A stretch of 64,000 bases of DNA. Origin: Defluviitaleaceae bacterium. Its GTDB lineage: Bacteria > Bacillota > Clostridia > Lachnospirales > WRAX01. The stretch is taken from assembly GCA_009780415.1 (NCBI GenBank), contig WRAC01000002.1, forward strand, positions 8,895 to 72,894, read 5' to 3'. The notes under the pieces were generated by a model that did no database searches, was not told the origin of the DNA, and saw only the letters and a program-made list of their open reading frames with translations. A program made the position numbers and the translations under genes. This document shows positions 40,400-60,185 of this stretch, piece after piece. Numbering within the stretch: the first letter of the stretch is position 1; every line of letters starts with the position of its first letter.

Positions 40400-40423
40400 T
40401 GTACACAAATTTGTACTCAAAAA
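40400..40423 (+). repeat. 24-bp sub-terminal direct repeat (left copy), a candidate integrase arm-type site
   Basis: tgtacacaaatttgtactcaaaaa is identical to 58736-58759. It contains the near-palindrome gtacacaaatttgtac. Confidence 0.7.
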
Positions 40424-44083: not shown

Positions 44084-44303
44084 TTTGCGCCCCCTTTCCT
44101 CTCTCCATAGCTTCATCAATGGCACGATTGACAAAACCGTTAAGGCTTTCGCCGTTCGATGTTGCATAATCCTTTATACTTTCCCGCTGACCTTTTTTTA
44201 CTCGAATGTTAAGCGTATCATAAGCCTTTGAATTCCACTTGTTTTTTACGGCTGTACTCGTATGGGTTTTACGCTTTTTATCCGTTTCAGTTATAACAAC
44301 CAC
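44076..44303 (-). CDS. Ribbon-helix-helix (Arc/CopG-like) small DNA-binding protein coupled to Fic
   Basis: ..KAYDTLNIRVKKGQRESIKDYATSNGESLNGFVNRAIDEAMER is a typical RHH beta-alpha-alpha pattern. Translationally coupled to the Fic gene. Confidence 0.6.
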   Translation of the reverse strand: MVVITETDKKRKTHTSTAVKNKWNSKAYDTLNIRVKKGQRESIKDYATSNGESLNGFVNRAIDEAMERGKGAQND

Positions 44304-44419
44304 CCACTTTTATATTATTTTTGGATAATCAATAACCGCACCATTATTATATACTACTTAATACAGTATGTCAAGAAAAAAGAAATTTCAAAAATAATAA
44401 AATATTTCTCAAAAAACAC

Positions 44420-44448
44420 TTGACATACTTAACACACCATGTTATACT
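44420..44448 (+). promoter_or_regulatory. Near-consensus sigma-A promoter
   Basis: TTGACA (44420-44425), 17 nt, TG-extended TATACT (44443-44448). Confidence 0.65.
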
Positions 44449-44451
44449 ATA

Positions 44452-44596
44452 TTCAGAGGTAGAGAGAAGCGGCGGCAAGCCGAAAGCACCGGGAAAGCCT
44501 ACCCCATATCCTTGTGAGTGGTCGCATACGAACCCCAATAGTCAAGAAGATGAGTAGCCCGCTTCTCCACAAATAAAAAACAGGAGGTACACCACC
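44452..44596 (+). other. Roughly 145-nt 5' leader with a long-range closing stem, a candidate structured RNA
   Basis: gagaagcgg (44464-44472) pairs with ccgcttctc (44559-44567), enclosing 86 nt. It is followed by an A-rich tract and GGAGG before ATG 44597. No known family recognised. Confidence 0.3.
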
Positions 44597-44863
44597 ATGA
44601 TAAACTTACAAGAAAAAATCAGAGAATACCGCGAGTTTAAGCGGTTAGCAGAGGAAGCGCAAACCGCCGCCGACAGCATAGCAGACGAACTAAAAGCGGC
44701 AATGCAGGAAGCGGGACAGGACAAAATGACAATCGGTGAGTATAAGCTCTCCTACACCGAAGCTACACGCGAAACCCTCGACAAGAAAAGATTGGAAGCA
44801 GACTTGGGCGACCTGTCCGACTACACGAAAGTCACAACCTACAAGCGGTTCTCGGTAGCATAG
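44597..44863 (+). CDS. Hypothetical protein (coiled-coil N-terminus)
   Basis: RBS CAGGAGG. 88 aa ending ..YTKVTTYKRFSVA. Proteins like it are recalled from firmicute mobile elements, with no function assigned. Confidence 0.5.
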   Translation: MINLQEKIREYREFKRLAEEAQTAADSIADELKAAMQEAGQDKMTIGEYKLSYTEATRETLDKKRLEADLGDLSDYTKVTTYKRFSVA

Positions 44864-44925
44864 GAAAAGCCCTTACATTAGCACCCGACCAAGAGTAACG
44901 ATGATAAGAGCTTTAACACCACCGC

Positions 44926-44964
44926 CGGAGCGGGGTAAATCAAGTATAGCACAGCCCCGCTCCG
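44926..44964 (+). terminator. Hairpin between small ORFs (weak terminator or processing site)
   Basis: cggagcgggg-N19-ccccgctccg followed by an AT-rich tract. Confidence 0.3.
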
Positions 44965-45001
44965 AATTACAATAAAATAATTATGAATGGAGCGTGAAAT
45001 T

Positions 45002-45205
45002 ATGTTGAACCCTCAAAGCCTGCCGAACGGCGGCGAGCAGTACGAGAAATATAAACCCGCCGGGCGCGGTATTGCACCCCGCTACGCATATGATTACAGG
45101 CATACCGACGGCGAGTTGTTCTCATGCGTTAAGCGGACGCTTGACGAGTGCCGCGCGGCGCGTGATGAATGGATAGCCAAGAAAGGAAGCGGCGGCGATG
45201 TTTGA
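45002..45205 (+). CDS. Hypothetical protein
   Basis: ATG 45002 follows GGAG. Contains ..YDYRHTDGELFSCVKRTLDECRAARDEW.. The track start is 44987. Confidence 0.45.
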   Translation: MLNPQSLPNGGEQYEKYKPAGRGIAPRYAYDYRHTDGELFSCVKRTLDECRAARDEWIAKKGSGGDV

Positions 45206-45386
45206 AAAATTGTTAAAAGAAATCGAGTACGCCAAGACCGCAACTTTTAAGCGTCAATCTCTTTACCACGAATACGGGCGTATCACAATGGCGCGGGAGT
45301 TGGGCGCAATAACTCAAAATGAGTATATGGAGCTTAACCACGCTTGCGTCTATGACGGGATTAACAATCCGAAACATTACGATTAA
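45198..45386 (+). CDS. Hypothetical protein
   Basis: 62-aa ORF whose start overlaps the upstream stop. Confidence 0.4.
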   Translation: MFEKLLKEIEYAKTATFKRQSLYHEYGRITMARELGAITQNEYMELNHACVYDGINNPKHYD

Positions 45387-46347: not shown

Positions 46348-46773
46348 TTAATCGTCGAGCTTATCGAACAACCCCTCTTTTACGGCTTTTTTGCATATTA
46401 CACCGTATATCCGTTTTACTGAATCGGTTGACAAGTCAAGCTCCGATGCGATTTCTTTCCATGTCAGACAATTTTCAAAACGTAAATTTAATAATCGCAT
46501 ATGCTCATAGGAAAGTGAAAATAAAAACATATCAAATTCGGCGCGTTGTTTAAGTAAATCATCTGTGCTTTTTTGCATATCAATAATATTTACCATTGTA
46601 TTATCGAAGCGGTGCGGGTTTAACTGTGATTTCGGCATACCGTCGATTTTGGGATTGCCTGCGGTAGCGGAAGCGTAAAGCGACAAAAGCCGCTTATTTG
46701 CGGCGGCAATTTTGTCATGCGCTCTATACAATTTTCTGAAATGCTCGTTTTTATCGTTCACACCCGCTACCAC
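46348..46773 (-). CDS. Sigma-70 region-4-type HTH protein (phage late-transcription regulator-like, ArpU/RinA class)
   Basis: C-terminal ..LLNLRFENCLTWKEIASELDLSTDSVKRIYGVICKKA.. is a region-4 HTH. Its size (141 aa) and phage context fit. Confidence 0.55.
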   Translation of the reverse strand: MVAGVNDKNEHFRKLYRAHDKIAAANKRLLSLYASATAGNPKIDGMPKSQLNPHRFDNTMVNIIDMQKSTDDLLKQRAEFDMFLFSLSYEHMRLLNLRFENCLTWKEIASELDLSTDSVKRIYGVICKKAVKEGLFDKLDD

Positions 46774-46837: not shown

Positions 46838-49800
46838 TTATGAAAATGCCCCCCTCATGTTACGGATTCTTAACGATTGCGTCCTGTCTACCATATCCGC
46901 GACGACACGGGGTTCGCCCGACGTGTCGTTAATGTTGAACGTGGATTTTTGGTCGTAGGCATAGGAACGGTTATCGTAGGAAATATTGTTGTTTGACGTG
47001 GTGTATGACGCTTGGGTAGCTTGCCCCATTTGCCCCATTACCCTGTTCGCGTTGTCAAGAAACTCACCCATTTTCGCACCCAGTCCGGCGAGGTCTACGC
47101 CGCCGACGGTAGAGGTCGCGGCTTCCGCGCCTTTTCCAAGAATGGCAACGATTTGGGCGATTGAACCGCTGATGTTTTGCAATATCGCGCTGACTTTCTC
47201 AATGCTCGCGCCGCCGTCCTGTTTCTTAAATTGGTCGGAAACTTTATTAATCCATTCGGTATTCTTTTCAAGGGGTACGACAGCTTCCGCGCCCGTACCT
47301 TCCAAAAGTCCTACCTGCCCCTTGCGAAGAACGCCGCCCTTTGCCAGTTCCGGGATTTGCGGCGTATTGATAATAGGCATCCAGTCAAACGGTTTAAGAC
47401 CAAATATGCTAATGTCTTTGATTTTTTGTAATGCCGCATTAATTCCGTCAAAGGGGAGAGTGATAACGGTATTGATTCCGCGAATAATGCCATTTACAAT
47501 ATTCTTAAAGGCTTCCAGTATTCCGTTCCCTATTCCGCTGAATATTTCGCCACCCTTTGAAAATACGTCCTTGACACCCTGCCATGCGCCGGAAAATATA
47601 CCTATGAACCAGTCTGCGATTCCAATAAACGGGGCTTTTATACTGTCCCATATCCCGGCAAAGTAATCACCGACCGCGTTCCAAATGCCCTTGATACCCT
47701 CCCATGCGTTTTTGAAAATATCTTGAATTGTGTTCTCGCCGCTAAACGCGCCGATTATGCTATCCCATATACCAGAGAAAAAATCACCGACAGCGGAGAA
47801 TATGCCTTTGATACCCTCCCATGCCGCGCCGAATAATCCCTCGAACCACCCGGCGACATCGGGAAACATTCCCTTGATTTTGTCCCAAATACCGCCAAAG
47901 AACTCGCCAACAGCCGCGAAAGCGGTTTTTATGCCCTCCCAAGCACCAGAGAACAGCCCGGAGAACCATTCTGCCACGCCCGAAAACGCGCTCATTATAC
48001 TGTTCCAAATGCCTACGAAGTAGTCCCCGACCGCGTTCCAAATGCCGACTATTCCGTCCCAAGCAGTAGAAAATATATCACCTATCGTGTTTTCGCCGGA
48101 GAACGCTCCTATGATACTGTTCCAAACGCCAGTAAAGAACTCGCCAACGGCGGCGAAAATGCCCTTAATGCCCTCCCACGCACCGCTGAACAAGTCCTCA
48201 AACCATTCGGCTACGTTGGGGAACTTCTCTTTTATCCCCTGCCAAACGCCGCCGAAAAACTCTCCGACGGCGGCAAACGCGCCCGTGATTCCGTCCCATG
48301 CGCCAGTAAACAAACCCGTAAACCATTCCGCAACGCCAGAAAACAATTCGGATATTTTATCCCATATCCGGGTAAAAAACGCGGCGGCGGTCGCCTATGC
48401 GCCGGAGATACCCTCCCACGCTCCGCTGAACTTTTCGGAGAACCATGTCGCTACACCCGTAAACGCGGCTGATATGCTTTCCCATATTCCAGAGAAGTAC
48501 GCGCCAACCGCGTCCCAGATACCTTTAATGCCCTCCCATGCGGTTATAAAGATGTCTTGGATTGTATTTTCGCCCTTGAAAGCACCGATAATGCTGTCCC
48601 ATATACCCTTGAAAAAATCTCCGACGGCGGCGAAAACTCCCTTGATACCATTCCATGCTGATGTAAAAGTATCTTCAAACCACCCGGCGACGTTTGGGAA
48701 TTTTTCTTTTATGCCGTCCCAGATACCTCCGAAAAATTCACCGACTGCCGAGAACGCGCCTTTTATGCCGTCCCAAGCCTTAGAAAAAATGTCGGTAAAC
48801 CATGTGCCGACGGTTGAGAATATATTTTTTATGCCCTCCCAAACATCGGAAAAGAAGCCCGGTATCGCTTCCCATATGCCCTTGACCCAATCGACGAATT
48901 TAGATATGGCTTTCTTTATGTTCTCCCACACATTTATGAAGAAATTTCGGAAGCCCTCGCTATTGTTCCATAGCAGAATGAATCCGGCGACAAGCGCGGC
49001 GATAAGCCCTATGATAATGCCGATAGGGTTTGCGTTCATAGCCGCGTTAAGAAGCCATTGCGCGGTGGTGAGAGCCGTCTTGACGGCTTTTACAGCCGTT
49101 ATAGCCGTTTTGTACGCGATTATTGCGCCGACTAATGCAAATACAACCTCTTTCGCGCCCTTTAACTGAATGAACCATGTGACTGCGTTGGCAACTTTGG
49201 TCGCAACATCAGCCAATAGCCCTATCGCGCCGGGTAATGCGTCGCTGATAAGCCAAGTTAAAAAAGGCGATAAGATGTCCGCTCCGTCCATAAAGCCGCC
49301 AAACAGCGTTGACAAAACAGTACCGATTGCGGCAAATATGCTTTTAATCGCGCCGCCTACTTTTTCAAAGGTGGCTTTGAAGTTGTCAATCGCACCACTT
49401 TCTTGGAGCGTGTTCCAAAAGTTGCGTACCCATGATATGACGCGCAAGATACTAAGCCTTATAGCGTCCATTGCTCTCTCGAATCCCTGTTTAAGTTTTT
49501 CGATTACGCCGCCCTGCTTGTTAAGTTCTGTCCATATATCTATAAGCCATTGCCAAAACCCGCCGAGAAGCGCGTCCCCGCCGTCCAAATATGTGAAAAA
49601 ATCCTCCGCAAGCAACATCAGAGCCGAAAATATCATAATAAGTTTACCTACAAACCCGGATTTAATGAAAAATGCTAAAGCCGACAATATTGCCATAACG
49701 CCCTTTACTTCTGTGGGAATCATATCAAACACGCGCTTAATTACGTTAAATATAATCCCCGCGCCGCGTATGATTGTGCCGCCGAGTTGTACCAACCATG

Positions 49801-50407
49801 CAAGGGCTTTCGCAATGTTCGATGTCCAGTTAGGTATATTTTTTTTCAGCGTTTCGTTGAATCCGTTAAACAGCTTCCTTAAATTCTCCATAGGAGTTTG
49901 GACGTATTTAAGAAAATGATAGCCTACCCATTGCAAGGCGTTCGACGCTGTTTGTTTTATCTCCTTGAAAGCTGTCGCCATTTCGCGGAACGGTTCGAGT
50001 GCTTCCGACATATCGGGCATTTTGAGTGTTTCCGCGTTCCTCTTTAACTGCTCAAATTCTTTCAACAATCGCGGGTCGAGCGCAATTTCCTCCATGCTCT
50101 TACCCATAATGTCGAGCGCGGATTTTACTTTGTACGCTTCCTCACGCGGCAGACCCATGTTTCGGGCAAATCTCGTTAATTCGTCGTCCGCTCTTGAAAG
50201 GTTGCTCGTAAATTTCAAAAGCCCTGCGGCGGCTACGGACACGAAGCCCGTAACCGCCAGTCCCGCTTTGGCGAAATCCTTGACAAAAGAGTTAGCCAGT
50301 TTGTTTGTTTTTCTTTCTGCGTCCTTTGTGGCTTTTTCGAGTTGCTTTGTCATGTTGTCTTTCAAGCCAAGAGCAACTAAAAATTCATTCAATACCAAGA
50401 ATCTCAC
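46838..50407 (-). pseudogene. Phage tail tape-measure gene interrupted by one in-frame TAG
   Basis: Two track ORFs (48395-50407 and 46838-48346) are in the same frame and separated only by a TAG at 48395-48397. Together they make 1190 codons. Features: TM-rich centre, reiterated W/F-periodic units ([26 protein letters not shown]), and position after a tail-chaperone gene. Confidence 0.75.
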
Positions 50408-50425
50408 CTCGCTTCCGATTAGGCT

Positions 50426-50935
50426 TTATTCGCGTTCCGTATATGGTTGTGTGCGCGGAAAGGAAGAAGATAGGGGCGACATAATTGAAGTCAAGCGTTT
50501 TCCATCGAAAAAATCGCCGATACTCCACATAATTACCTCGCAGAGCAAGCGCAGGACGAGCAACGGGTCGTGTTCCACGTCCAGTACGCCGTATGTCCCG
50601 TCCGGGTTAAGGACGCGGGCTTCACCCGCAGGGAGCAGTTCAAAGGCGTTCTGTAAAGACTTCTGCATGATGTAATCGAAGTCTGCGGGTGCTACCTTGT
50701 CGAGCGTTTCCGCTATGGTGTCGAGCGAGAGGTAGTCCCCCAAGTTCGACAATACCGCTTCCGCGTGTACCCCGCTTTTTTGCGCTTCCGCGACAAGCGG
50801 CATAAAGTTCTGAAATACGGGTAGGATTTTCGCAATAAAAACCTTTACGACTTTCAGCCCGTCCATTGCCGGGTATTTTTTGACGATAAAGTTGCGTTCC
50901 TCGATTGTGATTGTTTTAGAGATTGTCCGTGCCAT
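50426..50935 (-). CDS. Phage tail assembly chaperone-like protein
   Basis: 169-aa acidic protein immediately upstream of the tape-measure gene. Called mainly from position. Confidence 0.5.
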   Translation of the reverse strand: MARTISKTITIEERNFIVKKYPAMDGLKVVKVFIAKILPVFQNFMPLVAEAQKSGVHAEAVLSNLGDYLSLDTIAETLDKVAPADFDYIMQKSLQNAFELLPAGEARVLNPDGTYGVLDVEHDPLLVLRLLCEVIMWSIGDFFDGKRLTSIMSPLSSSFPRTQPYTERE

Positions 50936-51054
50936 AATAAAATCCCTCTTTTCTTATTTTTGTGGTTTGGCATTTATAGCCAACGATTTTTACTGCCCTG
51001 TTGGGTGTTTTCTGCGGTCATAAGCTCGCCTGTACTAACTTTATTATTATGTAA

Positions 51055-51343
51055 CTATGGTACACCTCCTTTTTGATGTTCGTCGTCCGGCACAGGGTAG
51101 TTTTTCGAGCGTAGATATATAAATAAATCCGCTTGCCGCTCAACCTCCGTTATTTCTTCATCGGTGAATCTAAAATACCTATATGGTGACATTTGCAAAG
51201 CAACACTTAACTTTGACGCAATCACTAATTCGTCTAAGGTCGCAAGAGTAAGGTCGTTTTTTCTTTGCAAATGTGGGTTCGAGCTTATCCGTTACTTTGT
51301 CTATACGGTTATTCATTTCTTTTTTACTTAACGGTTTACCCAT
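51055..51343 (-). pseudogene. Small phage ORF apparently frameshifted at a homopolymer
   Basis: ATG 51343 (RBS AAGGGTG) reads MGKPLSKKEMNNRIDKVTDKLEPTFAKKK. The reading then continues in another frame as the track ORF 51055-51270. The switch coincides with the A6/T6 run at 51256-51261. Confidence 0.4.
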
Positions 51344-51357
51344 TTTGTACACCCTTG

Positions 51358-51969
51358 TTATGTAATTAATGATTTCAACCAGTTGCGTGAATTATAGCGA
51401 CGGGTCGCAAGCCACACACCCATTGCCGCCGACAGTACAATATCGTCGTGTACCCCCTCGCGCCACGCTTCGTACTGGTCGTGACCGTTGAGATTTATTT
51501 TCACCTTGAAATTAGTTAGCTCCTTAACAAGTGTGTCCGCTCCCTCTAAATCCCGCGCAATTTTTAACTGTTCGTTTTGGAAAGCTACTTGCAGGGCAGA
51601 TATTAAATCCCGCTTCGGTACGCGGTATATTTTGCCGTCCTCCGTGACTTCGTTCCCGCCCGTTATTAAAACCCCTCGCAGATTCGCCCATGTTCCACGA
51701 AAATTTTGTTTCAATAAATCCCACACAGGACGACCGACACCAGTAATATCAATGGCAACGGTTTTGTGTTGTTGCTTAATTTGCGGGCTTTCTGCAATCT
51801 CTTTTAAGCGGTCAACAATTTTGGGGTACGGTGTGCCGCGCTCCGGGCGTTCGATACGCCGTAAATGATATTCCGCTCCCTTTTCATCTGTAAGAAAACT
51901 TTCAATAATGGTTATCGCGGTAAAATCGCTTATTTGCGCCAAGTCTGCTGATATAAAATATTCTCCCAT
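51358..51969 (-). CDS. Terminase large subunit, C-terminal nuclease-domain ORF
   Basis: MGEYFISADLAQISDFTAITIIE.. (RNaseH-like nuclease start with an acidic residue) ... HDDIVLSAAMG. It has its own AGGAGGGG RBS 7 nt upstream. Confidence 0.65.
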   Translation of the reverse strand: MGEYFISADLAQISDFTAITIIESFLTDEKGAEYHLRRIERPERGTPYPKIVDRLKEIAESPQIKQQHKTVAIDITGVGRPVWDLLKQNFRGTWANLRGVLITGGNEVTEDGKIYRVPKRDLISALQVAFQNEQLKIARDLEGADTLVKELTNFKVKINLNGHDQYEAWREGVHDDIVLSAAMGVWLATRRYNSRNWLKSLIT

Positions 51970-51980
51970 GTATACCCCTC

Positions 51981-52727
51981 CTATAAAATCAATGGCTTTA
52001 CATTATCGTCAAATGCCGCCTGCACCATGTCATAATTAAATACCGTGTCAACCGTTTCGACAAACTCACAACAAAACTCTTGACGAAAAAACATACTGCC
52101 TAAGCTCTGGCGTTGCCGTTCCAGTTCTTCCGGCGATATGCGCGGGCATTTTGTAGCGGGTATTTCTACCCTGTGCCAGTCCTCGCCGCCGTCCTGCCAC
52201 TCTTGAAAGAAGTGTCCACGCTTGCCGTAGGGCGTTGTCATGGCTATAAACGTCCCGTTATTTATTATCAACATAGGCATTACGGCTTTGTAAAATTCGT
52301 CGTCCACCTGCGCCGATTCGTCCTCTAAAATCAGATTAACGCCGGAAAAACCCCTAACCGTCGCTTGATTGCTCGGCAACGATATTATGCGGCTTCCGTT
52401 CTCTAACACCATTGACAGGCGGTTATCTTCGAGTAACGCGGGGCGCGTGTCCATACACTCATAACCCTCTTTGACCTTGCGGAAAAGTTCCTGCGACTGC
52501 CGCAACGACGGCGAAACAAGCAGTATCAAAGACTTTGGGCGGTATATGCCTGTGTGCAATGCTTTTGTCGCGGTCGTGGTGCTTTTGCCCGACTGCCGCG
52601 AACAGTTAAGTAATAACCGCTTGCCCTCATACCGCAAAACCTCCGCTTGCCATTCGTCCGGCTCTATGCCTATGTAGCGGGAAAACTCTACCGGGTCAAG
52701 GGCGCGGATTAAATCTTGATGTATCAC
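51981..52727 (-). CDS. Terminase large subunit, N-terminal ATPase-domain ORF
   Basis: Walker A NCSRQSGKST and Walker B LILEDESA. It ends with a TAG at 51981-51983. The nuclease ORF follows 11 nt later in a different frame. Confidence 0.7.
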   Translation of the reverse strand: MIHQDLIRALDPVEFSRYIGIEPDEWQAEVLRYEGKRLLLNCSRQSGKSTTTATKALHTGIYRPKSLILLVSPSLRQSQELFRKVKEGYECMDTRPALLEDNRLSMVLENGSRIISLPSNQATVRGFSGVNLILEDESAQVDDEFYKAVMPMLIINNGTFIAMTTPYGKRGHFFQEWQDGGEDWHRVEIPATKCPRISPEELERQRQSLGSMFFRQEFCCEFVETVDTVFNYDMVQAAFDDNVKPLIL

Positions 52728-53198
52728 GTTTCAACCCTCCCCACCGCTTCAATGACAGCCCGCCGCGCTTCCGGGTACGGTTCAAGGGCGGCAAGTATCA
52801 CGTTACGTAGGTTCACCCACTCCGGCGCGATAATTATGTTGTTGACCGTTTGCGATTGGAGTTCTCCTGTAATTTTGGCGTAAAGTTCCGTTATCCCTCT
52901 AAGCTCCCGTATAGCGGCAATAGCGGCGTTGAGGTTGTCGGCTTTTAATGCTTTTGAGTAAATATCCTCCGCTTTGGCGTTCAAGGCAGAAACACGTCCC
53001 ATAAGACTATCAGCGGCGGCGATTTTTTGCGCGTCCTGCGCTTTGGAGAGTTGCGACGGTATATGCTTCTTGTGGCGTTGCAAGGACGATATTGTAAGCC
53101 CGTGCGCCTTTGCTAATCGGTCGCGGGACACCCTCTAAAAGCTGTTCGTTAATCGCGTTCGCTTCCGCATGAGCGCACACGGTACATTGTTTAGCCAT
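52724..53198 (-). pseudogene. Terminase small subunit-like gene with a frameshift
   Basis: ATG 53198 gives MAKQCTVCAHAEANAINEQLLEGV. The expected continuation SRDRLAKAHGLTISSLQRHKKHI... lies in another frame (track ORF 52724-53131). The switch is near 53125-53135. Confidence 0.55.
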
Positions 53199-53417
53199 AA
53201 AACCGCCCCCCTTTCTGCTCCGGTAAATTTGCCGTTATTTTTCGATTGAAACGAAAAACGCTTTTCCCGCACCGCTTGCGGCGGTGTCCCTGCGGGTTAT
53301 TACTGGTCGGGATTTAACGAAACCCCACATATCGCCGCCGCGTCTGCGACGGAGTCCGAAACACCGCGCCGTGTCTCCCAAGTTCCCGCATACATTCATA
53401 TAGCAGACGGCTTTCGG

Positions 53418-53615
53418 TCATGCGTGTACCCCCTCGCGTTTCATTTGGTTAATCGCTCGGTTTATGATGAAATCGTTGGCTTCCTCAAAAAAAAGCATAT
53501 CGTAACCACCATCGGCGGCTATACCCCAATCTTTGGGGTTTGTTGTAATTCTAAGCAAGGTTTTTTCATGGATTTGATTGAGTTCGGCAGGCGTTATTGT
53601 CCCGGTATTGTTCAT
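53418..53615 (-). CDS. Hypothetical phage protein
   Basis: 65-aa ORF in the early operon. Confidence 0.4.
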   Translation of the reverse strand: MNNTGTITPAELNQIHEKTLLRITTNPKDWGIAADGGYDMLFFEEANDFIINRAINQMKREGVHA

Positions 53616-53643
53616 GGTGTTTCCTCCTTATTTCCACTAAGAT

Positions 53644-54492
53644 TTATAAATTTTGCTCTATAACGCTGTTAATACGCCAGTTTTTAGTTCTATCTTTACC
53701 GATTGCAAGCGCATATTTACCCGACCGTTCTAATATGCGGCTTCCCGTCGCTTCGTCGAAATTGATTACTTCGTTTATGGTGAACTCGCTTGATATTAAA
53801 GTCGTGAGCTTAGAATTGTTATACCGAAAGTTAATTATTTCAAACGCGAGCTTAATATCTGCGTCGGTAGGGGACGCGCCTTTTTTAGTTTTAAGGAAAT
53901 CGTCGATATATAACACTTGCGTTTCACGCAAATCCTTGATTGCCGCGTCATAATCTGCGTCGTCGTTTACGAGAGCTTTCAATTTCTTGGATTCCATATC
54001 CCATACCATGTAACGAGCAGGTATACCTTGATTTAACAATTCCCCAACTATCGCAGTACAAAGGTGAGTTTTACCCGCACCGACTTGACCTCCTGCTTAA
54101 AACCATTTACCGATGGATTCAGCCAAAAAAGCCCGCGCTATTTCTTTTATCTTCCGTTGCCAAGCATTAGGGGTTAAATATAAATCAAAGGTATAGCGCG
54201 TCATAAGCTCGCTTAACCCGCTCCGCTCAATTTGACGTAAATTTTTGCGCGTTTCCATGCACGAACAAGTCTGCATAACTTCGTGATTATCTTCGCGTAA
54301 AATTGCAATATAACCCCGATTCAAGCAGAATAAACAGTCATACCCAGTCAAATCCCCGACGGATTTATTTATTGATTCAATGCGACGGCGAGCAAGCTCC
54401 CCGATGTCATAAGGCGTTTGCGGCATAGTTTGCATATTTCGTAACAACTCCGAGAAAGGTGTTAATTTATCCTGCATTGAAAGAACCTCCAT
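53644..54492 (-). pseudogene. DnaC/IstB-like helicase-loader ATPase interrupted by an in-frame TAA
   Basis: The track ORFs 54097-54492 and 53644-54039 are in frame. Read-through gives ..ESIGKWF-TAA(54097-54099)-AGGQVGAGKTHLCTAIVGELL.., so the stop sits just before the Walker A. Walker B is VLYIDDF. Confidence 0.7.
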
Positions 54493-54493
54493 G

Positions 54494-55294
54494 TTAATTT
54501 ATTTCAATACCGTATATCGGCTCGTTTGACGGGGTAGGTTGGTTAAGGCTCGCGGTCGGTGTTATATCGTCGTCCCAACACCCGCCGTTAATCCATGTTG
54601 CGGGGTTCGGGATATATTGCCCATTATCGCGTTGCCATTTATCGCTATGCTTTGCCGCTTCGACCGCTTCGATTATCTTTTTATGAAGCTCTGCCGATGG
54701 TTTCGCCTTTTTCCATGCAGTAAACGCCGTTTTCTTTGCCGTTTTCTTTGGATATATCGCCCAAAACTCGTTAAAGCGTTCTTCGAGAACCGACACCTCC
54801 CGCGCCTGCGGCGCGTCCTCGTCGCCGCTCGCGGCGATAGAGGGGTTGTTCTTTACATTCTTTAATTCTTTATTATTCTTTACATTCTTGATAGTGGTTA
54901 GGTCTTGGTTAGCTGTTGGTTGGCTGTTGGTTAGGCTTTGGTTATCATGTTGGTTAGGTGCATTGTTAAAACCTTGATAAATCCCCCAATTTAGTATGTT
55001 TATGAACAACCCCGTCTTGGTTGATTGGTAGGTTAGAAATTCGTATTTAGTAAATCGGACTAACGCAGTTCTAACATTTTGCCTACTCACACCTGCGGCG
55101 TTTGCAAGGCTCGTTGAACTCGTAATAAATTGACCGGGCTGTATTGCAAACTTTTTCCCTTGCCATTCCCATTCCTTTTCTGTATGGCTTGCCAAAAGTA
55201 ATATCGTTATCAATACAGCTTTTTGCTCCGCTGATGATTTACACCATATCGGCTTTTCTAATAATTCGCGGTAAATCTTGACCCAACCCGTCAT
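54494..55294 (-). CDS. Phage replisome-organizer / DnaD-like replication protein
   Basis: N-terminal GWVKIYRELLEKPIW.. wHTH-type organizer domain. C-terminal FNEFWAIYPKK..AFTAWKKA.. phage-conserved C-terminus. Confidence 0.6.
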   Translation of the reverse strand: MTGWVKIYRELLEKPIWCKSSAEQKAVLITILLLASHTEKEWEWQGKKFAIQPGQFITSSTSLANAAGVSRQNVRTALVRFTKYEFLTYQSTKTGLFINILNWGIYQGFNNAPNQHDNQSLTNSQPTANQDLTTIKNVKNNKELKNVKNNPSIAASGDEDAPQAREVSVLEERFNEFWAIYPKKTAKKTAFTAWKKAKPSAELHKKIIEAVEAAKHSDKWQRDNGQYIPNPATWINGGCWDDDITPTASLNQPTPSNEPIYGIEIN

Positions 55295-55323
55295 GTTATC
55301 ACCTGCCTTTTACACGAGCCGGA

Positions 55324-55467
55324 TTATATATCGCTGTCGCTCGCTCCGTGAACGTAGTCATGGACGGCTTTAAGGGCGATTTTTGCAGACTTGATGCGCG
55401 ATTGTTGTTCCCGAATGAACGGCAAGGCTTCCTCGCTTGAAGTCGGAAGAAGGTCTAATAATTTCAT
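55324..55467 (-). CDS. Small hypothetical ORF (47 aa)
   Basis: ATG 55467 overlaps the upstream stop (ATGA). It fills the gap in the early operon and falls below the track length cutoff. Confidence 0.3.
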   Translation of the reverse strand: MKLLDLLPTSSEEALPFIREQQSRIKSAKIALKAVHDYVHGASDSDI

Positions 55468-55661
55468 GTAAGCTCCCCCCGTAAAAACAATTCAAATTTA
55501 CCTTGATGTATTAAGACTTTCACACCTACACGGATAAAAAAAGGAATTTCTTCTTTAACCCACCGTCTTATCGCCCGTTCCGATATGCCATATTCACGGT
55601 ATTTCGCCGCCGTTTTTGGAATGGTTTTCATATCCGATATATTATTCATTGTTTCCGTCAT
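55464..55661 (-). CDS. Excisionase/MerR-type HTH protein
   Basis: ..KTAAKYREYGISERAIRRWVKEEIPFFIRVGVKVLIHQGKFELFL.. matches the excisionase-family DNA-binding fold. Confidence 0.55.
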   Translation of the reverse strand: MTETMNNISDMKTIPKTAAKYREYGISERAIRRWVKEEIPFFIRVGVKVLIHQGKFELFLRGELT

Positions 55662-55830
55662 GCGGGTTCACCCCCTGTTGCGTGGCTTGCTCCTGTTGCT
55701 CTTGTAAGACTTTCCGTTCCCAATAACGGCGTGTATGCTCGCGGCATTTGTCGCGGTTCTTTGCGTTCCAATATTTCTTGTATTCGCGGCGTTTCTCGGC
55801 GGCTTGTTCGGCTAAACTTTTTTCGTTCAT
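55642..55830 (-). CDS. Small basic protein, first gene of the leftward early operon
   Basis: RBS AAGGAGGG. 62 aa, Lys/Arg/Glu-rich. Confidence 0.4.
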   Translation of the reverse strand: MNEKSLAEQAAEKRREYKKYWNAKNRDKCREHTRRYWERKVLQEQQEQATQQGVNPHDGNNE

Positions 55831-55845
55831 TTTTGGTTTCCCTCC

Positions 55846-55940
55846 TTGACATAATTCTTTTCCTATGATAGAATAAGAATTAGAACATATTCCGAGTTAG
55901 GTTCTAAATAAATTCTATCATATCTATTTCTTGTCGTCAA
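55846..55940. promoter_or_regulatory. Lysis/lysogeny switch: two face-to-face promoters within a nested palindrome
   Basis: Plus strand: TTGACA (55846-55851), 17 nt, TAGAAT (55869-55874). Minus strand: TTGACG (55940-55935), 17 nt, TAGAAT (55917-55912). Outer inverted repeat tatgatagaat/attctatcata (55864-55874 and 55912-55922) contains both -10 boxes. Inner inverted repeat ttagaac/gttctaa (55880-55886 and 55901-55907). An extra half-site attctat is at 55967-55973. Confidence 0.6.
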
Positions 55941-56005
55941 TAGAAAAAGAACATCACATGGAATATATTCTATTGCAGGTGCATAATAAAACGGAGGTGC
56001 ATAAA

Positions 56006-56767
56006 ATGTACGATAAAGAATTAGCAGAAATAGGAAAACGCATTGAAACATTACGCAAGGGTAAGGGTTGGACACAAGAAATACTCGCGGATAAACTCAA
56101 CATCGCCCGCAACACACTTACTAAGTTAGAGGGCGGTTTTCGGGATTTCAAGAGTACAGAGCTATTAAACATCGCAAAAGTGCTTGATGTGTCAACAGAT
56201 TATTTACTCGGCTTAACGGAAATGAGCCGTGCAGACGCTACGGCGCGTGATGTAAGCGAGCGTTACGGGCTATTTGAAACACCTCTAAACGAATTATCGA
56301 ATATGCCCACATCGGAGAAGCCATTCGGAGCAGAACACGCGCAAGCAATGAGCAGGCAAGCCGAAACAATGGCATACCGCGCAATATTTAACTTACTTTT
56401 GAGTAGTGAACATGGTAAAAAAGCTCTCAAACTTCTTACGAGTTATTACTTCGCAAACCTCGACGACAGAAGCAAAGAGAGCATACCCGCCTTTATTCTT
56501 CCGTGGGATTTACCGGACGGCGGGACATGGTTAGATACCGCTATGGTAGCAGACGATTTACAACGTGAAGTGTTGTTAATCCTTGCTAACGACGAATTAA
56601 GGGCTTTAAGACTTGAACTCGCCGGGATAGATACGACTTACCCGCAAAAATACAGCTATGCAAAACCACCAAGCACAGAAACGGTTATTAAAGCGCAAGC
56701 CGCTTATGACGCACGAAACCCGCACATAAAAAAAGGGGGGGCAGACGATGGCAAAGAAAACAAATAA
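56006..56767 (+). CDS. XRE-family HTH repressor (cI/ImmR-like) with an unassigned C-terminal domain
   Basis: ATG 56006 follows ACGGAGG. HTH is GWTQEILADKLNIARNTLTKLEGG. The track start is 55931. Confidence 0.75.
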   Translation: MYDKELAEIGKRIETLRKGKGWTQEILADKLNIARNTLTKLEGGFRDFKSTELLNIAKVLDVSTDYLLGLTEMSRADATARDVSERYGLFETPLNELSNMPTSEKPFGAEHAQAMSRQAETMAYRAIFNLLLSSEHGKKALKLLTSYYFANLDDRSKESIPAFILPWDLPDGGTWLDTAMVADDLQREVLLILANDELRALRLELAGIDTTYPQKYSYAKPPSTETVIKAQAAYDARNPHIKKGGADDGKENK

Positions 56768-58211
56768 CGGCTTGCCCTCCGGCGTGTCGGCTCGCGCTAA
56801 TCGTCCGGGATTGTATATGCTTCGAGTTATGATAAACGGACAGCAGTTCACCGAATACTACCGCACAGCCGAAACAAGCAAAAAGAAATTACAAAGCGAA
56901 TTACAAAAGGTGTTCGACGCTTTCAAGGAACGCGCTGAACGCGGCACACTTAAAAATAGCGACATTACCGATAAAAACACATTCGCACAAGCGGTTGAAT
57001 GGTTCACCGAAATGCGTAAACTCGATATACGGGAGAGTACACAGCTTGCAGACAACTTTATATTTGAACATTACCTTATTCCGCGCCTTGCACCTTATAA
57101 GCTCCGCGAGATTACCTCCCCGATGATTACGAAACTACTTGCGGAACTGCTCGAAAAGGGCGGCGGCGGTGGTCGGGCGTTATACGCCGCTCGCGAAGAA
57201 TTTATTAAACTGATGTACGACACCAAACCCAAACGGACGGACGGCGGGTTTAATAAAGTAGCGCGGGAAATTAACATCGGCAAAGACAATACGTTCATAC
57301 GTGTAAGGTACGGGGAGAACTGTGACAAGGAAATCGCGGAAAAGGTAGCAAAGTATTACGGCGTTCCACTTCTAACGGCATTTGAAAAGAAAACCACTAC
57401 AAAACCTCTTTCGGCACTATATGTATCAAAAATCACATATACATTGTCTGCTCTGTTTACGGCTTGCGTCAAGAATGGCGTTTTATTTCAAAATCCTGTT
57501 ATGAACGCCACAAAGCCACGTATCGGCGAAAAAGACATACCTGCATACCTTGACAACACGCAAATACCGATATTCCTTGACGCGCTCGGCGAGCTTGATA
57601 TTGATAACTCAATCCGTGTTTCCTTGACCTTAATGTTAATGCTCGGCTTGCGTAGTGGCGAAGCTCGCGGGCTTCGTTGGGTAGATGTTGATTTCAATAC
57701 GGGGATTGTCAGCATTGAAAAAAATTGCGGTGATACCTTTGACGGATTAGCATTGACCGACCTAAAAACGAAACGCTCCCGGCGCAAGCTCCCGTTATCG
57801 CCCATACTTCACGATATTTTAATTGAGCATAACAAGCGGTTGAACGAATACTCCCGTTCGCTCGGTTCAATATGGCAGGATAATGGTGTTATATGCCCGA
57901 ACACAACAGGCGGGTTAATGGCAAAGTCTACGCCCAACAAAGCAGTTAAACGTATCTTGACCGCAAGAAAGGAGTTACCCCGAAAACTTCATGCTCATTC
58001 ATTGCGCCACAGTTTTATATCCCTGCTTATCTCAAATGGGCTTGACTTAGTAACGGTTGCCGCCCTTGCAGGTGATACGATTGAGATTATTAACAAACAC
58101 TACGCACACAGCTTCGCGGAACGCCGCGCCGCCGCTATGGACGTTGTAGGGGCTTCATTCGCGACATTAACTGAAAACCATGTACCGAGTAAAGTCCTAC
58201 TAATAAAATAA
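56748..58211 (+). CDS. int: Tyrosine-type site-specific integrase
   Basis: Catalytic-domain motifs LRSGEARGLRW (Arg), HSLRHSFISLL (H-x-x-R) and INKHYAH (Tyr). Adjacent to the element end next to guaA. Confidence 0.9.
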   Translation: MAKKTNNGLPSGVSARANRPGLYMLRVMINGQQFTEYYRTAETSKKKLQSELQKVFDAFKERAERGTLKNSDITDKNTFAQAVEWFTEMRKLDIRESTQLADNFIFEHYLIPRLAPYKLREITSPMITKLLAELLEKGGGGGRALYAAREEFIKLMYDTKPKRTDGGFNKVAREINIGKDNTFIRVRYGENCDKEIAEKVAKYYGVPLLTAFEKKTTTKPLSALYVSKITYTLSALFTACVKNGVLFQNPVMNATKPRIGEKDIPAYLDNTQIPIFLDALGELDIDNSIRVSLTLMLMLGLRSGEARGLRWVDVDFNTGIVSIEKNCGDTFDGLALTDLKTKRSRRKLPLSPILHDILIEHNKRLNEYSRSLGSIWQDNGVICPNTTGGLMAKSTPNKAVKRILTARKELPRKLHAHSLRHSFISLLISNGLDLVTVAALAGDTIEIINKHYAHSFAERRAAAMDVVGASFATLTENHVPSKVLLIK

Positions 58212-58222
58212 GGAGGGGCAGT

Positions 58223-58660
58223 ATGCAACCCGAATATGCTGAAAACGAAGTTTACAAACTAATTGCTTCATGGGTTGAATGTTGCGGTTATAAGATTCGA
58301 TACAAAGTGCGTGAAAATGAAGAAAACGCCGCATATACTCTCCCAGACGAATACGGAGAAAGTTCTATCCAAATGTACACCAACAACGAAATATATATCC
58401 AATTCGGGAAGTATTTCGGAACACCAAATTGCCATGATGATATATACACAGAAATTGGAGCTTCCAATGTTCTTGCACATGAATTAGCACATCAAATATT
58501 TACCAATGTTTCAAATAAGCCTTTTGCAAAACTTTTCAGCATAAATCCCGAATATGAAGCAAATAGGGTAATGGTCGATAATGAAGAAGCGTGTGACGCA
58601 TTTGGTAATTTTCTTTACACGTTAGCAGAACGTATTATCAATGGAGCAGTAATAAATTAA
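58223..58660 (+). CDS. HExxH metalloprotease-like protein (ImmA/IrrE-like candidate anti-repressor)
   Basis: The NVLAHELAHQIF zinc-binding motif in a 145-aa protein, directly downstream of the repressor and integrase. Confidence 0.5.
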   Translation: MQPEYAENEVYKLIASWVECCGYKIRYKVRENEENAAYTLPDEYGESSIQMYTNNEIYIQFGKYFGTPNCHDDIYTEIGASNVLAHELAHQIFTNVSNKPFAKLFSINPEYEANRVMVDNEEACDAFGNFLYTLAERIINGAVIN

Positions 58661-58735: not shown

Positions 58736-58759
58736 TGTACACAAATTTGTACTCAAAAA
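58736..58759 (+). repeat. 24-bp sub-terminal direct repeat (right copy)
   Basis: Identical to 40400-40423. A partial third copy ttgtgtacaaatg lies at about 58773-58785. Confidence 0.7.
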
Positions 58760-58880: not shown

Positions 58881-60113
58881 TCATTCCCACTCCACTGTAC
58901 CCGGCGGCTTCGCGGTAATGTCGTATACGACACGCCCAACACCCGGTATTTCATTTATTATGCGGGAGGCGGCGGTAGCTAGGGTTTTATGTGAAAGGGG
59001 GCAATAGGCGGCGGACATGAAGTCTTGCGAGTAAACGGCGCGGAGGGCGATGACCGTTGCGTATGAGCGTTTGCCGGCGAAAACACCGACCGCGCGGAGA
59101 CCTGTGTGTACGGCGAAATACTGGTCGGGGCGGCGGCGAAGGCGCGAGACTTCGTGGCAAAAGATGGCATCCGCAAGGCGCAGGGTTTCGAGCTTTTCTT
59201 CCGTTACCTCGCCCAGTACGCGCACGCTAAGACCGGGGCCGGGGAAAGGCTGTCTGTTTATGTATGCCTTTGCCAACCCGAGTTTACGACCCGCATCCCG
59301 TACCTCGTCTTTGAAAAGCATCGAAAGCGGCTCCACAAGTTCTTTAAACCCCATATTTTTTGGCAACCCGCCGACATTGTGGTGGCTTTTGACAAGATTT
59401 GAGCCGTCCGCACCTGATTCTATAATATCGGCATAGTTTGTCCCCTGCGCAAGGAACGGGATGTTCAGCTTTGCCGCCTCCTCGCGGAACACGGCAATAA
59501 ACTCGGCGCCGACAAGCTTACGTTTTTCTTCAGGATCAATAACGTGTTTGAGCTTAGACAAAAACCGTTCACGCGCGTTTACGCGGATCATTGTCAAATC
59601 CATACGCTTGAAAGCGGACTCCACTTCATCGCCCTCATTCAACCTCATAAGCCCATGATCAACAAAAACACAAACCGTACGCCCGGGTATGGCGCGCGAC
59701 AAAAGCGCCGCGCACACCGATGAGTCCACCCCGCCGGATAAAGCGAGCAGCACCCGCTCACCGCCTGTTTGTGCGCGTACGATGTCGATTTGCTCCGCGA
59801 TATAATTCTCTATGTTATAATTTCCTGTGGCTTTGCATATATCAAATAAAAAATTGTTAAGGATACATGATTCTATATCCGCGCCATCATTGATTTTCAG
59901 CAACGGTATGCCGAGCTTTGTAATATCAGGGTTCAAATCCTGCGCGTCATCCGTTGCTGCCGCAATAACTATGCCAATTGGGCTTATGTCTTTTACAGCC
60001 TGCCCTTTTATCGTCTCCGGCTTTATTACGGAATACACACCCGCTTGTCTGATGCTGCGGGCGATATCCTTCGCATTTCCGCCAAAATTAAGAACCAATA
60101 CGGTTTCTCTCAT
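58881..60113 (-). CDS. guaA: GMP synthase, ATP-pyrophosphatase type, with a vestigial glutamine-amidotransferase domain
   Basis: PP-loop LALSGGVDSSV, KSHHNVGGLP, QPFPGPGL and C-terminal ..VVYDITAKPPGTVEWE. The N-terminal region is only about 100 aa and lacks the GxCxG nucleophile and the HPE segment. The likely start is MRETVLVLNFGG at 60113; the track starts at 60185. Confidence 0.85.
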   Translation of the reverse strand: MRETVLVLNFGGNAKDIARSIRQAGVYSVIKPETIKGQAVKDISPIGIVIAAATDDAQDLNPDITKLGIPLLKINDGADIESCILNNFLFDICKATGNYNIENYIAEQIDIVRAQTGGERVLLALSGGVDSSVCAALLSRAIPGRTVCVFVDHGLMRLNEGDEVESAFKRMDLTMIRVNARERFLSKLKHVIDPEEKRKLVGAEFIAVFREEAAKLNIPFLAQGTNYADIIESGADGSNLVKSHHNVGGLPKNMGFKELVEPLSMLFKDEVRDAGRKLGLAKAYINRQPFPGPGLSVRVLGEVTEEKLETLRLADAIFCHEVSRLRRRPDQYFAVHTGLRAVGVFAGKRSYATVIALRAVYSQDFMSAAYCPLSHKTLATAASRIINEIPGVGRVVYDITAKPPGTVEWE

Positions 60114-60156
60114 TCCCGACACCCCTTTTTTCTTTACAATTCCAGCTATCTGTATT

Positions 60157-60185
60157 AATATATCTAATAGAGCCAAGTAAGTCAA
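60157..60185 (-). promoter_or_regulatory. Candidate sigma-A promoter for guaA
   Basis: Minus strand: TTGACT (60185-60180), 17 nt, TATATT (60162-60157). Confidence 0.4.

Follow-up and report, generated by a model that had tools for sequence, protein, structure and literature searches.

Experimental work on face-to-face promoter switches has, to our knowledge, been confined almost entirely to P2- and 186-like coliphages. In the back-to-back modules of Firmicutes, such as TP901-1 CI/MOR and phi11, the promoters fire apart and the first early gene encodes a helix-turn-helix (HTH) protein, Cro or MOR; convergent promoters, PQ and PX, are reportedly found on the enterococcal plasmid pCF10. Here, we analyzed a 64,000-nucleotide (nt) stretch of a Defluviitaleaceae genome (contig WRAC01000002.1; hereafter, the window), in which a 175-bp interval (55831-56005) separates a rightward XRE repressor-integrase operon from a leftward early/replication operon. 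This division, proposed by an earlier reading made from the letters alone (the sequence-only reading), is borne out by gene content. We consider it probable, at roughly 0.6, that the interval controls the choice between lysis and lysogeny in an integrated phage-like element, itself probably defective, by means of facing sigma-A-type promoters and a shared operator. The promoters of 186 lie face-to-face (Dodd et al. 1990 and Callen et al. 2004, as cited in PMC2760811 and PMC11318856). In that phage, CI occupies three sites over the lytic promoter plus the distant sites FL and FR and indirectly activates its own promoter through the relief of interference.

Both promoters named in the sequence-only reading were recovered by our promoter scan. 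The rightward one, P_right, consists of TTGACA (55846-55851, plus strand), a 17-nt spacer, and TAGAAT (55869-55874), matching 11 of 12 consensus positions with TG at -15/-14; the leftward one, P_left, consists of TTGACG (55940-55935, minus strand), a 17-nt spacer, and TAGAAT (55917-55912), matching 10 of 12, again with TG at -15/-14. Both -10 regions read TATG-A-TAGAAT (55864-55874 for P_right, with TATG-A at 55864-55868; 55912-55922 for P_left, which is more variable among relatives), and they are thus of the TRTG-type extended -10 form. The TRTG "-16" motif is a feature of Gram-positive promoters, reportedly described by Voskuil and Chambliss in 1998. Judged from the -10 positions, rightward transcription would start at about 55881 (55880-55882), leaving a 5' untranslated region of about 125 nt before the repressor ATG, and leftward transcription at the A at 55905 (55904-55906), with a 5' untranslated region of about 75 nt. 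The segment predicted to be transcribed on both strands (55881-55905) therefore spans about 25 nt, in agreement with the earlier estimate. P_right would drive the repressor-integrase operon, and P_left, whose -35 element (55935-55940) lies 65 nt ahead of the repressor ATG, would drive the early operon. The interval has a G+C content of 30%, versus 49% for the window.

The geometry of this locus closely follows the annotated coliphage records. In P2 (AF063097), the Pe/Pc promoters face each other within the order int, repressor, facing promoters, and early operon, which is common to both loci, and in 186 (U32222), pR and pL are likewise face-to-face, with a lysogenic operon running from repressor to int as here. 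A repressor-then-integrase operon read from a distal promoter is found in the window, and the same order holds in P2, in 186, and in the relatives described below. In all three systems, the promoter adjoining one gene drives the opposite gene: the lytic -35 element lies 0 to 14 nt from the repressor start codon in P2 and 186 (14 nt in 186), and the mirrored arrangement is seen here, where 15 nt separate the -35 element of P_right from the first lytic start codon. The intergenic interval measures 114 bp in P2 versus 175 bp here, the inner distance between the -10 elements is 49 bp in P2 versus 37 bp here and 27 to 53 bp in relatives, and by the same +7 rule the two transcripts would overlap by about 37 nt in P2 versus about 25 nt here. 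The host phylum of P2 differs from that of our element. The starts of 186 pR and pL are 62 bp apart, consistent with the hexamers annotated in U32222, compared with about 25 bp for the predicted starts here.

How easily could such a pair arise by chance? The window holds 33 sites with at least 10 of 12 matches, of which four also carry TG, and two of these four are P_right and P_left. Facing pairs of 10/12 sites within 200 bp occur three times, including this one; because two further pairs exist, the facing pair on its own within the window is suggestive and offers no decisive proof against chance. When the interval was shuffled with its dinucleotides preserved, the best score per strand averaged 7.8 (standard deviation, 0.55), a score of 10.2 was reached in 0 of 1,000 shuffles, and a facing pair equal in strength to the observed one also appeared in 0 of 1,000. 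Conservation of the layout among relatives appears to be a stronger argument than these single-window counts.

We therefore compared homologous loci. The repressor family comprises 23 clusters, all derived from metagenomes or metagenome-assembled genomes (MAGs), and genomic context was available for L001 and L002 (Oscillospiraceae MAGs), L028 to L031, L033, L034, L108 to L112, L117, and L118; three more loci (L125, L126, and L128) were reached through the small leftward protein. In the alignment used to find related loci (A1), four divergent sequences were left out. The comparison set thus consisted of 14 nonredundant homologous intervals of 165 to 190 bp and the three found via the small protein, 17 in total. 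The top plus-strand site has its -35 element at interval position 14 to 18 in 17 of 17 loci, immediately beyond the leftward gene's Shine-Dalgarno sequence, and the top minus-strand site has its -35 element at position 100 to 126, again in all 17. The predicted starts are convergent in every locus, with an overlap of 15 to 41 nt, so that the face-to-face orientation claimed earlier is borne out at the sequence level both in the window, where the best site per strand is likewise convergent, and in the 17 related loci. The hexamers carry 1.72 bits per column versus 0.5 to 0.6 in the spacers; the -35 elements of P_right and P_left each reach 1.72 bits, against 0.48 in the P_right spacer, and of 15 loci, 10 have TTGACA in the P_left -35 slot. 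When 14 loci were shuffled, none of 1,000 shuffles gave a facing pair as strong as the native one for 11 of them, and for the remaining three the frequency was 3.5% at most. The distance from the P_right -35 element to the leftward start codon is only 13 to 17 nt across loci; therefore, any leftward promoter inside the interval must fire through P_right. These observations suggest that the face-to-face layout exceeds chance and is kept across about 17 diverged elements with unrelated backbones, a conclusion that we regard as well supported.

It could be argued that the working promoters are instead a weaker pair placed back-to-back in the interval, with the leftward -35 near 55908 and the rightward one near 55941, the usual CI/Cro arrangement. 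Candidates of this kind can be written down (TAGAAA-17-TATATT, plus strand, 55941-55969; TTTAGA-18-TCTAAT, minus strand), but they score 6.0 to 9.4 against a shuffle background of 7.8 ± 0.55, and neither their positions nor their hexamers are conserved among loci, whereas the strong facing sites are conserved in position and sequence across the 17. Such an arrangement is highly improbable. The locus does resemble TP901-1 CI/MOR and phi11 in its divergent repressor and early operons, in operators spread over about 100 bp, and in a probably oligomeric repressor; unlike them, its best promoters face each other, its back-to-back candidates stay at background, and its first early gene lacks an HTH. 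We did not find the features of a back-to-back divergent CI/Cro module in the interval.

The sequence-only reading had also called the layout unusual for Firmicute XRE/Cro modules, and this view has to be softened by one precedent, a 2024 prediction for two Clostridium clostridioforme prophages (PMC11318856). In that work, PhagePromoter placed convergent promoters between the regulators of the LM41 prophages phi5 and phi12, and 186-like interference was suggested (PMC11318856). From their description, phi5 and phi12 are Clostridia prophages with an XRE/ImmR-like repressor and a facing pair between the regulators, similar to our locus; the difference is that the paper gives a program prediction for two prophages, without conservation analysis or operators (PMC11318856). 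This program prediction is the only Firmicute convergent-promoter switch that we found in the literature, where we found no experimental convergent-promoter switch in a Gram-positive phage. The ImmR/Pxis promoters of ICEBs1 are described as divergent (PMC11318856), and, as a difference from the ICEBs1 ImmR system, the repressor here has no neighboring gene for an ImmA-type protease.

Two other promoter-like arrangements of the window deserve a brief description. A second facing pair of 10/12 sites (plus strand, 55238-55265; minus strand, 55352-55323; together 55238-55352) surrounds the gap between a 47-residue open reading frame (ORF) and the replication initiator gene and may be due to chance in AT-rich DNA. 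A back-to-back near-consensus pair at 44346-44448, with TTGACA-17-TATAAT on the minus strand (12/12; -35 at 44374) and TTGACA-17-TATACT with TG on the plus strand (-35 at 44420), sits in an ORF-poor stretch (44168-45212) inside the element and may be a second control region. Within the leader of the repressor, the direct repeat AGGTGCATAA occurs twice (55977-55986 and 55995-56004), 18 bp apart, and the second copy includes the repressor Shine-Dalgarno sequence.

The palindromes around the promoters could be examined in the same set of loci. An outer 11-bp inverted repeat, TATGATAGAAT / ATTCTATCATA (55864-55874 / 55912-55922), had been noticed earlier as enclosing both -10 hexamers; it is present and perfect, yet it was rejected as an operator as such, as it amounts to two copies of the TRTG-N-TAGAAT extended -10 and is absent in relatives. 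It is not conserved because the leftward -10 element differs among them. The inner repeat TTAGAAC/GTTCTAA is also present and extends to 10 nt at 90%, and the further half-site ATTCTAT (55967-55973) is there as described; however, we now read the former as half-sites 2 and 4 of a larger unit, O1, and the latter as belonging to a second unit, O2. The conserved repeat unit comprises four half-sites, RGAA-N8-RGAA-N4-TTCY-N8-TTCY. O1 (55870-55905) is 36 bp long and symmetric, AGAA(55870)-N8-AGAA(55882)-N4-TTCC(55890)-N8-TTCT(55902), and extends from the P_right -10 element to the predicted P_left +1; its core palindrome AGAACATATTCC (55882-55893) matches the pattern RGAAYATRTTCY exactly and occupies the same slot in relatives. 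O2 (55948-55971) reads AGAA(55948)-N8-GGAATATATTCT, with its core at 55960-55971, and sits upstream of the P_left -35 element, about 8 bp beyond it.

Within the window, exact matches to these patterns are confined to the interval. The 12-bp palindrome RGAAYATRTTCY has two exact matches in 64 kb versus 0.04 expected, at 55882-55893 and 55960-55971, both within the interval, and its slots among relatives are interval positions 51 to 59 and 118 to 130. The tripartite pattern RGAA-N4-TTCY-N8-TTCY has three matches in the window versus 0.13 expected, all of them in the interval, and it recurs in the same slots of six relatives (L001, L002, L108, L110, L117, and L118). O1 shows no mismatch in the window, L001, L117, and L118 and one to three mismatches in L028, L030, L031, L108, L109, and L110. 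Its first half-site (AGAA, 55870-55873) doubles as part of the P_right -10 element, the G-containing hexamer TAGAAT, which 10 of the first 15 loci retain; the last base of O1 coincides with the predicted P_left start in the window and likewise in L110, L117, and L118, and falls within 2 nt of it in L001. In relatives, the O2 core palindrome begins exactly 12 bp past the GTCA in the P_left -35 element; the O2 of the window is rearranged, with an extra half-site on its left (55948-55971). We regard O1 and O2 as putative operators of the repressor. A search of 55300-56300 against Rfam found no RNA family.

The proteins encoded on both sides were then considered. The repressor (253 residues; 56006-56767, plus strand; ATG at 56006 and Shine-Dalgarno GGAGG at 55993-55997) is an XRE/Cro-C1 HTH regulator, matching Pfam HTH_3 over residues 13 to 67 (E = 5.9e-10; 39.5 bits versus a gathering cutoff of 23). 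Its structure model (mean predicted local distance difference test [pLDDT] of 83) adds an all-helical C-terminal domain, for which no fold match was found in the PDB; the HTH alone matched C-proteins (C.BclI), SinR (34 to 36% identity), ImmR (44%), and P22 c2. No match to Peptidase_S24, the domain of LexA/lambda-CI-type self-cleavage, was seen in the repressor. An identical protein is on record from a Defluviitaleaceae MAG. The tyrosine integrase gene (56748-58211, plus strand) overlaps the repressor ORF by 20 nt, and therefore the two belong to the same operon. Between the integrase and the right end of the element, a 145-residue ORF (58223-58660) carries an HExxH motif (AHELAHQ) with no Pfam or PHROG match; its product might be a metalloprotease of the ImmA-like kind, with the repressor as its target for inactivation.

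The first leftward gene (55642-55830, minus strand; Shine-Dalgarno GGAGGG at 55845-55840) encodes a 62-residue basic two-helix protein without an HTH. Its core, AEKRREYKRxWNAKNRDKCREHTRRYWERKVL, is very conserved, with a mean column identity of 53% over 32 clusters, and its model consists of two long helices (pLDDT, 84); neither a Pfam match nor a PDB fold match was obtained. The family is unannotated and counts at least 41 clusters (P0024 to P0064) with a nearly invariant basic core; one NCBI record labels a member "phosphatase," which its sequence does not support. The second leftward gene (55464-55661, minus strand) encodes an excisionase-like HTH protein, with similarity to Tn916-Xis (E = 5e-4) and HTH_17 (E = 2.8e-3), both under the Pfam cutoff, and relatives carry HTH_17 or AlpA genes in its position. 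The rest of the leftward operon includes a DnaD/O-like initiator (55294-54494, minus strand) and a split DnaC-like loader (54097-54492 and 53644-54039, minus strand).

Do the half-sites belong to the repressor at all? Granted that the facing promoters are real, the ligand of the AGAA/TTCY array might instead be a protein of the leftward operon, either the Xis-like HTH protein or the basic 62-residue one, acting between the promoters in the manner of 186 Apl or P2 Cox, with the repressor binding elsewhere. Runs of AGAA follow the P_right -10 element at 5- to 7-bp spacing in loci of both repressor HTH types, and the core of the small protein is nearly invariant in all loci, so a shared DNA target would be common too; furthermore, 186 Apl binds seven repeats between pR and pL, and the Xis-like ORF is weakly similar to Apl (E = 0.003). 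However, the best-conserved element is a two-fold symmetric palindrome, which is typical of XRE HTH dimers, whereas excisionases read direct repeats; the half-site core TTCT is that of SinR, the structurally closest HTH with a known target; and the small protein has no recognizable DNA-binding fold. This assignment seems unlikely to us, and we keep the repressor as the probable ligand of O1 and O2. SinR of Bacillus subtilis is a tetramer that reads the 7-mer GTTCTYT in several copies and orientations (PMC3163267). Its multicopy sites containing TTCT resemble the multi-half-site TTCY/RGAA units of the interval, with the difference that only the HTH domain of the repressor matches SinR. Covariation between the recognition helix of the repressor and the operator was tried as a further link and dropped, since L126, which has the other HTH type, still carries an AGAA-N4-TTCT palindrome.

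It is in the operators that the locus departs from P2 and 186. P2 C acts at two 8-bp direct repeats that flank the -10 element of the lytic promoter only and thereby leaves its own promoter free, while the 36-bp symmetric four-half-site O1 lies over the -10/+1 region of the repressor's own promoter and over the lytic +1, with O2 beside the lytic -35 element. An operator restricted to the lytic promoter, as in P2 and 186, is thus not what we find, given that O1, as the putative repressor site, includes the P_right -10/+1 region. The proteins also differ. The repressor has no full-length homology to 186 CI or P2 C: with P2 C, the likeness is confined to the Cro/C1-type HTH (27% identity over 48 residues; pairwise E = 7e-4), and P2 C has 99 residues versus 253 residues and an extra helical domain here, while 186 CI shows no sequence similarity to it (E = 11). 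The first early gene of P2 is Cox; here, a 62-residue non-HTH protein comes first and the Xis-like protein second, and the latter has no similarity to P2 Cox (E = 9.8). Early in the lytic operon, 186 encodes an excisionase-type HTH protein and our element the Xis-like one, a putative counterpart. No CII/pE-type establishment promoter as in 186 was seen here, and a search between O2 and the repressor ATG for a further promoter, PRM-like or leaderless, turned up nothing but a TTGCA conserved in relatives, some 27 nt ahead of the ATG and without a usable -10. According to the above-described comparison, the P2/186-type convergent switch that had been proposed holds for the geometry and the int-repressor order, which match the annotated records, and does not hold for operator placement; the predicted switch resembles P2/186 in layout and is outside that lineage.

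From these features, a working scheme may be drawn. P_right would fire rightward through the leader of about 125 nt into the repressor-integrase operon, and P_left would fire leftward through P_right into the operon of the small protein, the Xis-like protein, and the replication genes. O1 would fill the space between the promoters, its left outer half-site being the P_right -10 element and its right one ending at the P_left +1. O1 and O2 would be the binding sites of the XRE repressor, which probably acts as a tetramer or a larger oligomer. Occupancy of O1 would cover the -10/+1 region of P_right and lead to negative autoregulation of the repressor, and P_left would be clamped twice, at +1 by O1 and at -35 by O2, with P_right hit once. 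P_left would be held off more tightly than P_right because it is hit twice and also transcribed over from P_right. Once the repressor is inactivated, both promoters would open; each must transcribe across the other, and therefore mutual interference would be expected, with a short complementary RNA stretch. A product of the leftward operon would then probably tip the balance; the candidates are the conserved small protein and the Xis-like HTH protein, the latter by analogy with Apl and Cox.

The element that carries the interval is bounded by an exact 24-bp direct repeat, TGTACACAAATTTGTACTCAAAAA, at 40400-40423 and 58736-58759, which encloses about 18.4 kb; the two copies are probably its attachment sites. 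The right copy lies just 3' of a GMP synthase gene (58881-60185, minus strand). The large terminase ORF has only 248 residues, corresponding to the ATPase part (51981-52727), and is followed by an ORF without assigned function; a tail assembly chaperone gene (50426-50935) and a tape-measure protein in two ORFs (48395-50407 and 46838-48346) are present, the DnaC-like loader, as noted above, is also in two parts, and no portal or capsid genes were found in this stretch of the element (46838-54492). Thus, the element appears to be defective, with its head genes apparently lost, and a MAG assembly error is possible. A 141-residue ORF (46348-46773, minus strand) shows weak similarity to sigma-70 region 4 and extracytoplasmic function sigma factors (E = 4e-5, just under the Pfam cutoff) and may encode a late-gene regulator of the element.

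Several points weigh against the switch reading. The related loci are phylogenetically linked, so the counts of 17 are not independent, and the information content was computed on sites picked as the best scorers in these linked loci and is somewhat inflated. For all members, the evidence consists of consensus matches and conservation. An operator over the repressor's own -10/+1 region would make maintenance expression hang on a presumed partial occupancy. Loci whose HTH sequence differs contain the AGAA core as well, and a rigid loop between O1 and O2 is unsupported, with center distances of 66, 68, 69, 72, and 78 bp and no common helical phase. Since the element around this copy seems degraded, its switch may have ceased to matter here. 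Finally, the P_left -10 element is weak in some relatives (CACACT in L117 and TACCCT in L118), where P_left may need an activator.

The last point leads to the possibility that only P_right is strong and constitutive and that P_left is conditional, depending on an activator or another sigma factor; the interval would then hold an autoregulated repressor promoter and no symmetric interference switch. The P_left -10 element is indeed much less conserved than that of P_right (0.5 to 0.9 bit at three positions) and is poor in the two loci just named, and the ORF resembling sigma-70 region 4 at 46348-46773 is encoded within the element. On the other side, P_left of the window matches 10 of 12 positions with TRTG. 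Across loci, the TTGACA of the P_left -35 slot and the 17-nt spacing are conserved at 1.72 bits per column, and T1, A2, and T6 of the -10 element are retained everywhere except in one locus. Even if conditional, P_left would have to fire through P_right. Taken together, we judge this possibility quite unlikely and retain the two-promoter switch as the more probable account.

The gene arrangement around the switch recurs well beyond this element. A cassette of integrase, repressor, 165- to 190-bp interval, and small protein, usually followed by an HTH_17/AlpA-like gene, is common to nearly all related loci. In L108, L110, and L126 to L129, the cassette (integrase, repressor, facing promoters, small protein, and Xis-like gene) stands in differing backbones, including a DnaG zinc-ribbon primase with DUF3987, a Prim-Pol/D5 helicase-primase, and a minimal islet with only an Abi_2 gene. 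The cassette behaves like a portable module. In DNA and protein searches of 50,697 sequenced phages, neither the region nor the small protein had a relative, and the repressor retrieved only generic XRE repressors at 31% identity or less. A scan of IMG/VR with the repressor gave no match, and one with the small protein gave only two distant loci (L119 and L120), which were left out of the locus count. These two contigs encode a different XRE repressor and keep the TTGACA promoter abutting the small gene; their best leftward promoter is weak and seems to overlap P_right at the -10 region rather than face it at a distance, a layout that may be intermediate, of an "overlapping divergent" kind.

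A broader proposal can be built on this, though we consider it doubtful and offer it only tentatively. The locus would represent a Cro-less integration-immunity cassette, widespread in Clostridia mobile elements (prophages, primase-type islands, and minimal Abi-carrying islets), in which the 36-bp operator exactly fills the overlap and one XRE oligomer with a new C-terminal domain throttles its own promoter and blocks the lytic one. Commitment would come about through mutual polymerase interference together with a new, near-invariant, basic two-helix protein of 45 residues in place of Cro, working, for example, by countering the repressor (an anti-repressor) or by binding RNA polymerase.

For the family as a whole, the predicted switch would follow a defined operator logic that differs from that of P2 and 186, with a shared operator filling the transcript overlap. 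If this is true, bistability based on convergent promoters would have an origin independent of the P2 lineage, and the interval would provide a compact Gram-positive switch (175 bp, one repressor) usable as a part for anaerobes. It would also give a pointer to the function of a very conserved, unannotated family of small proteins.

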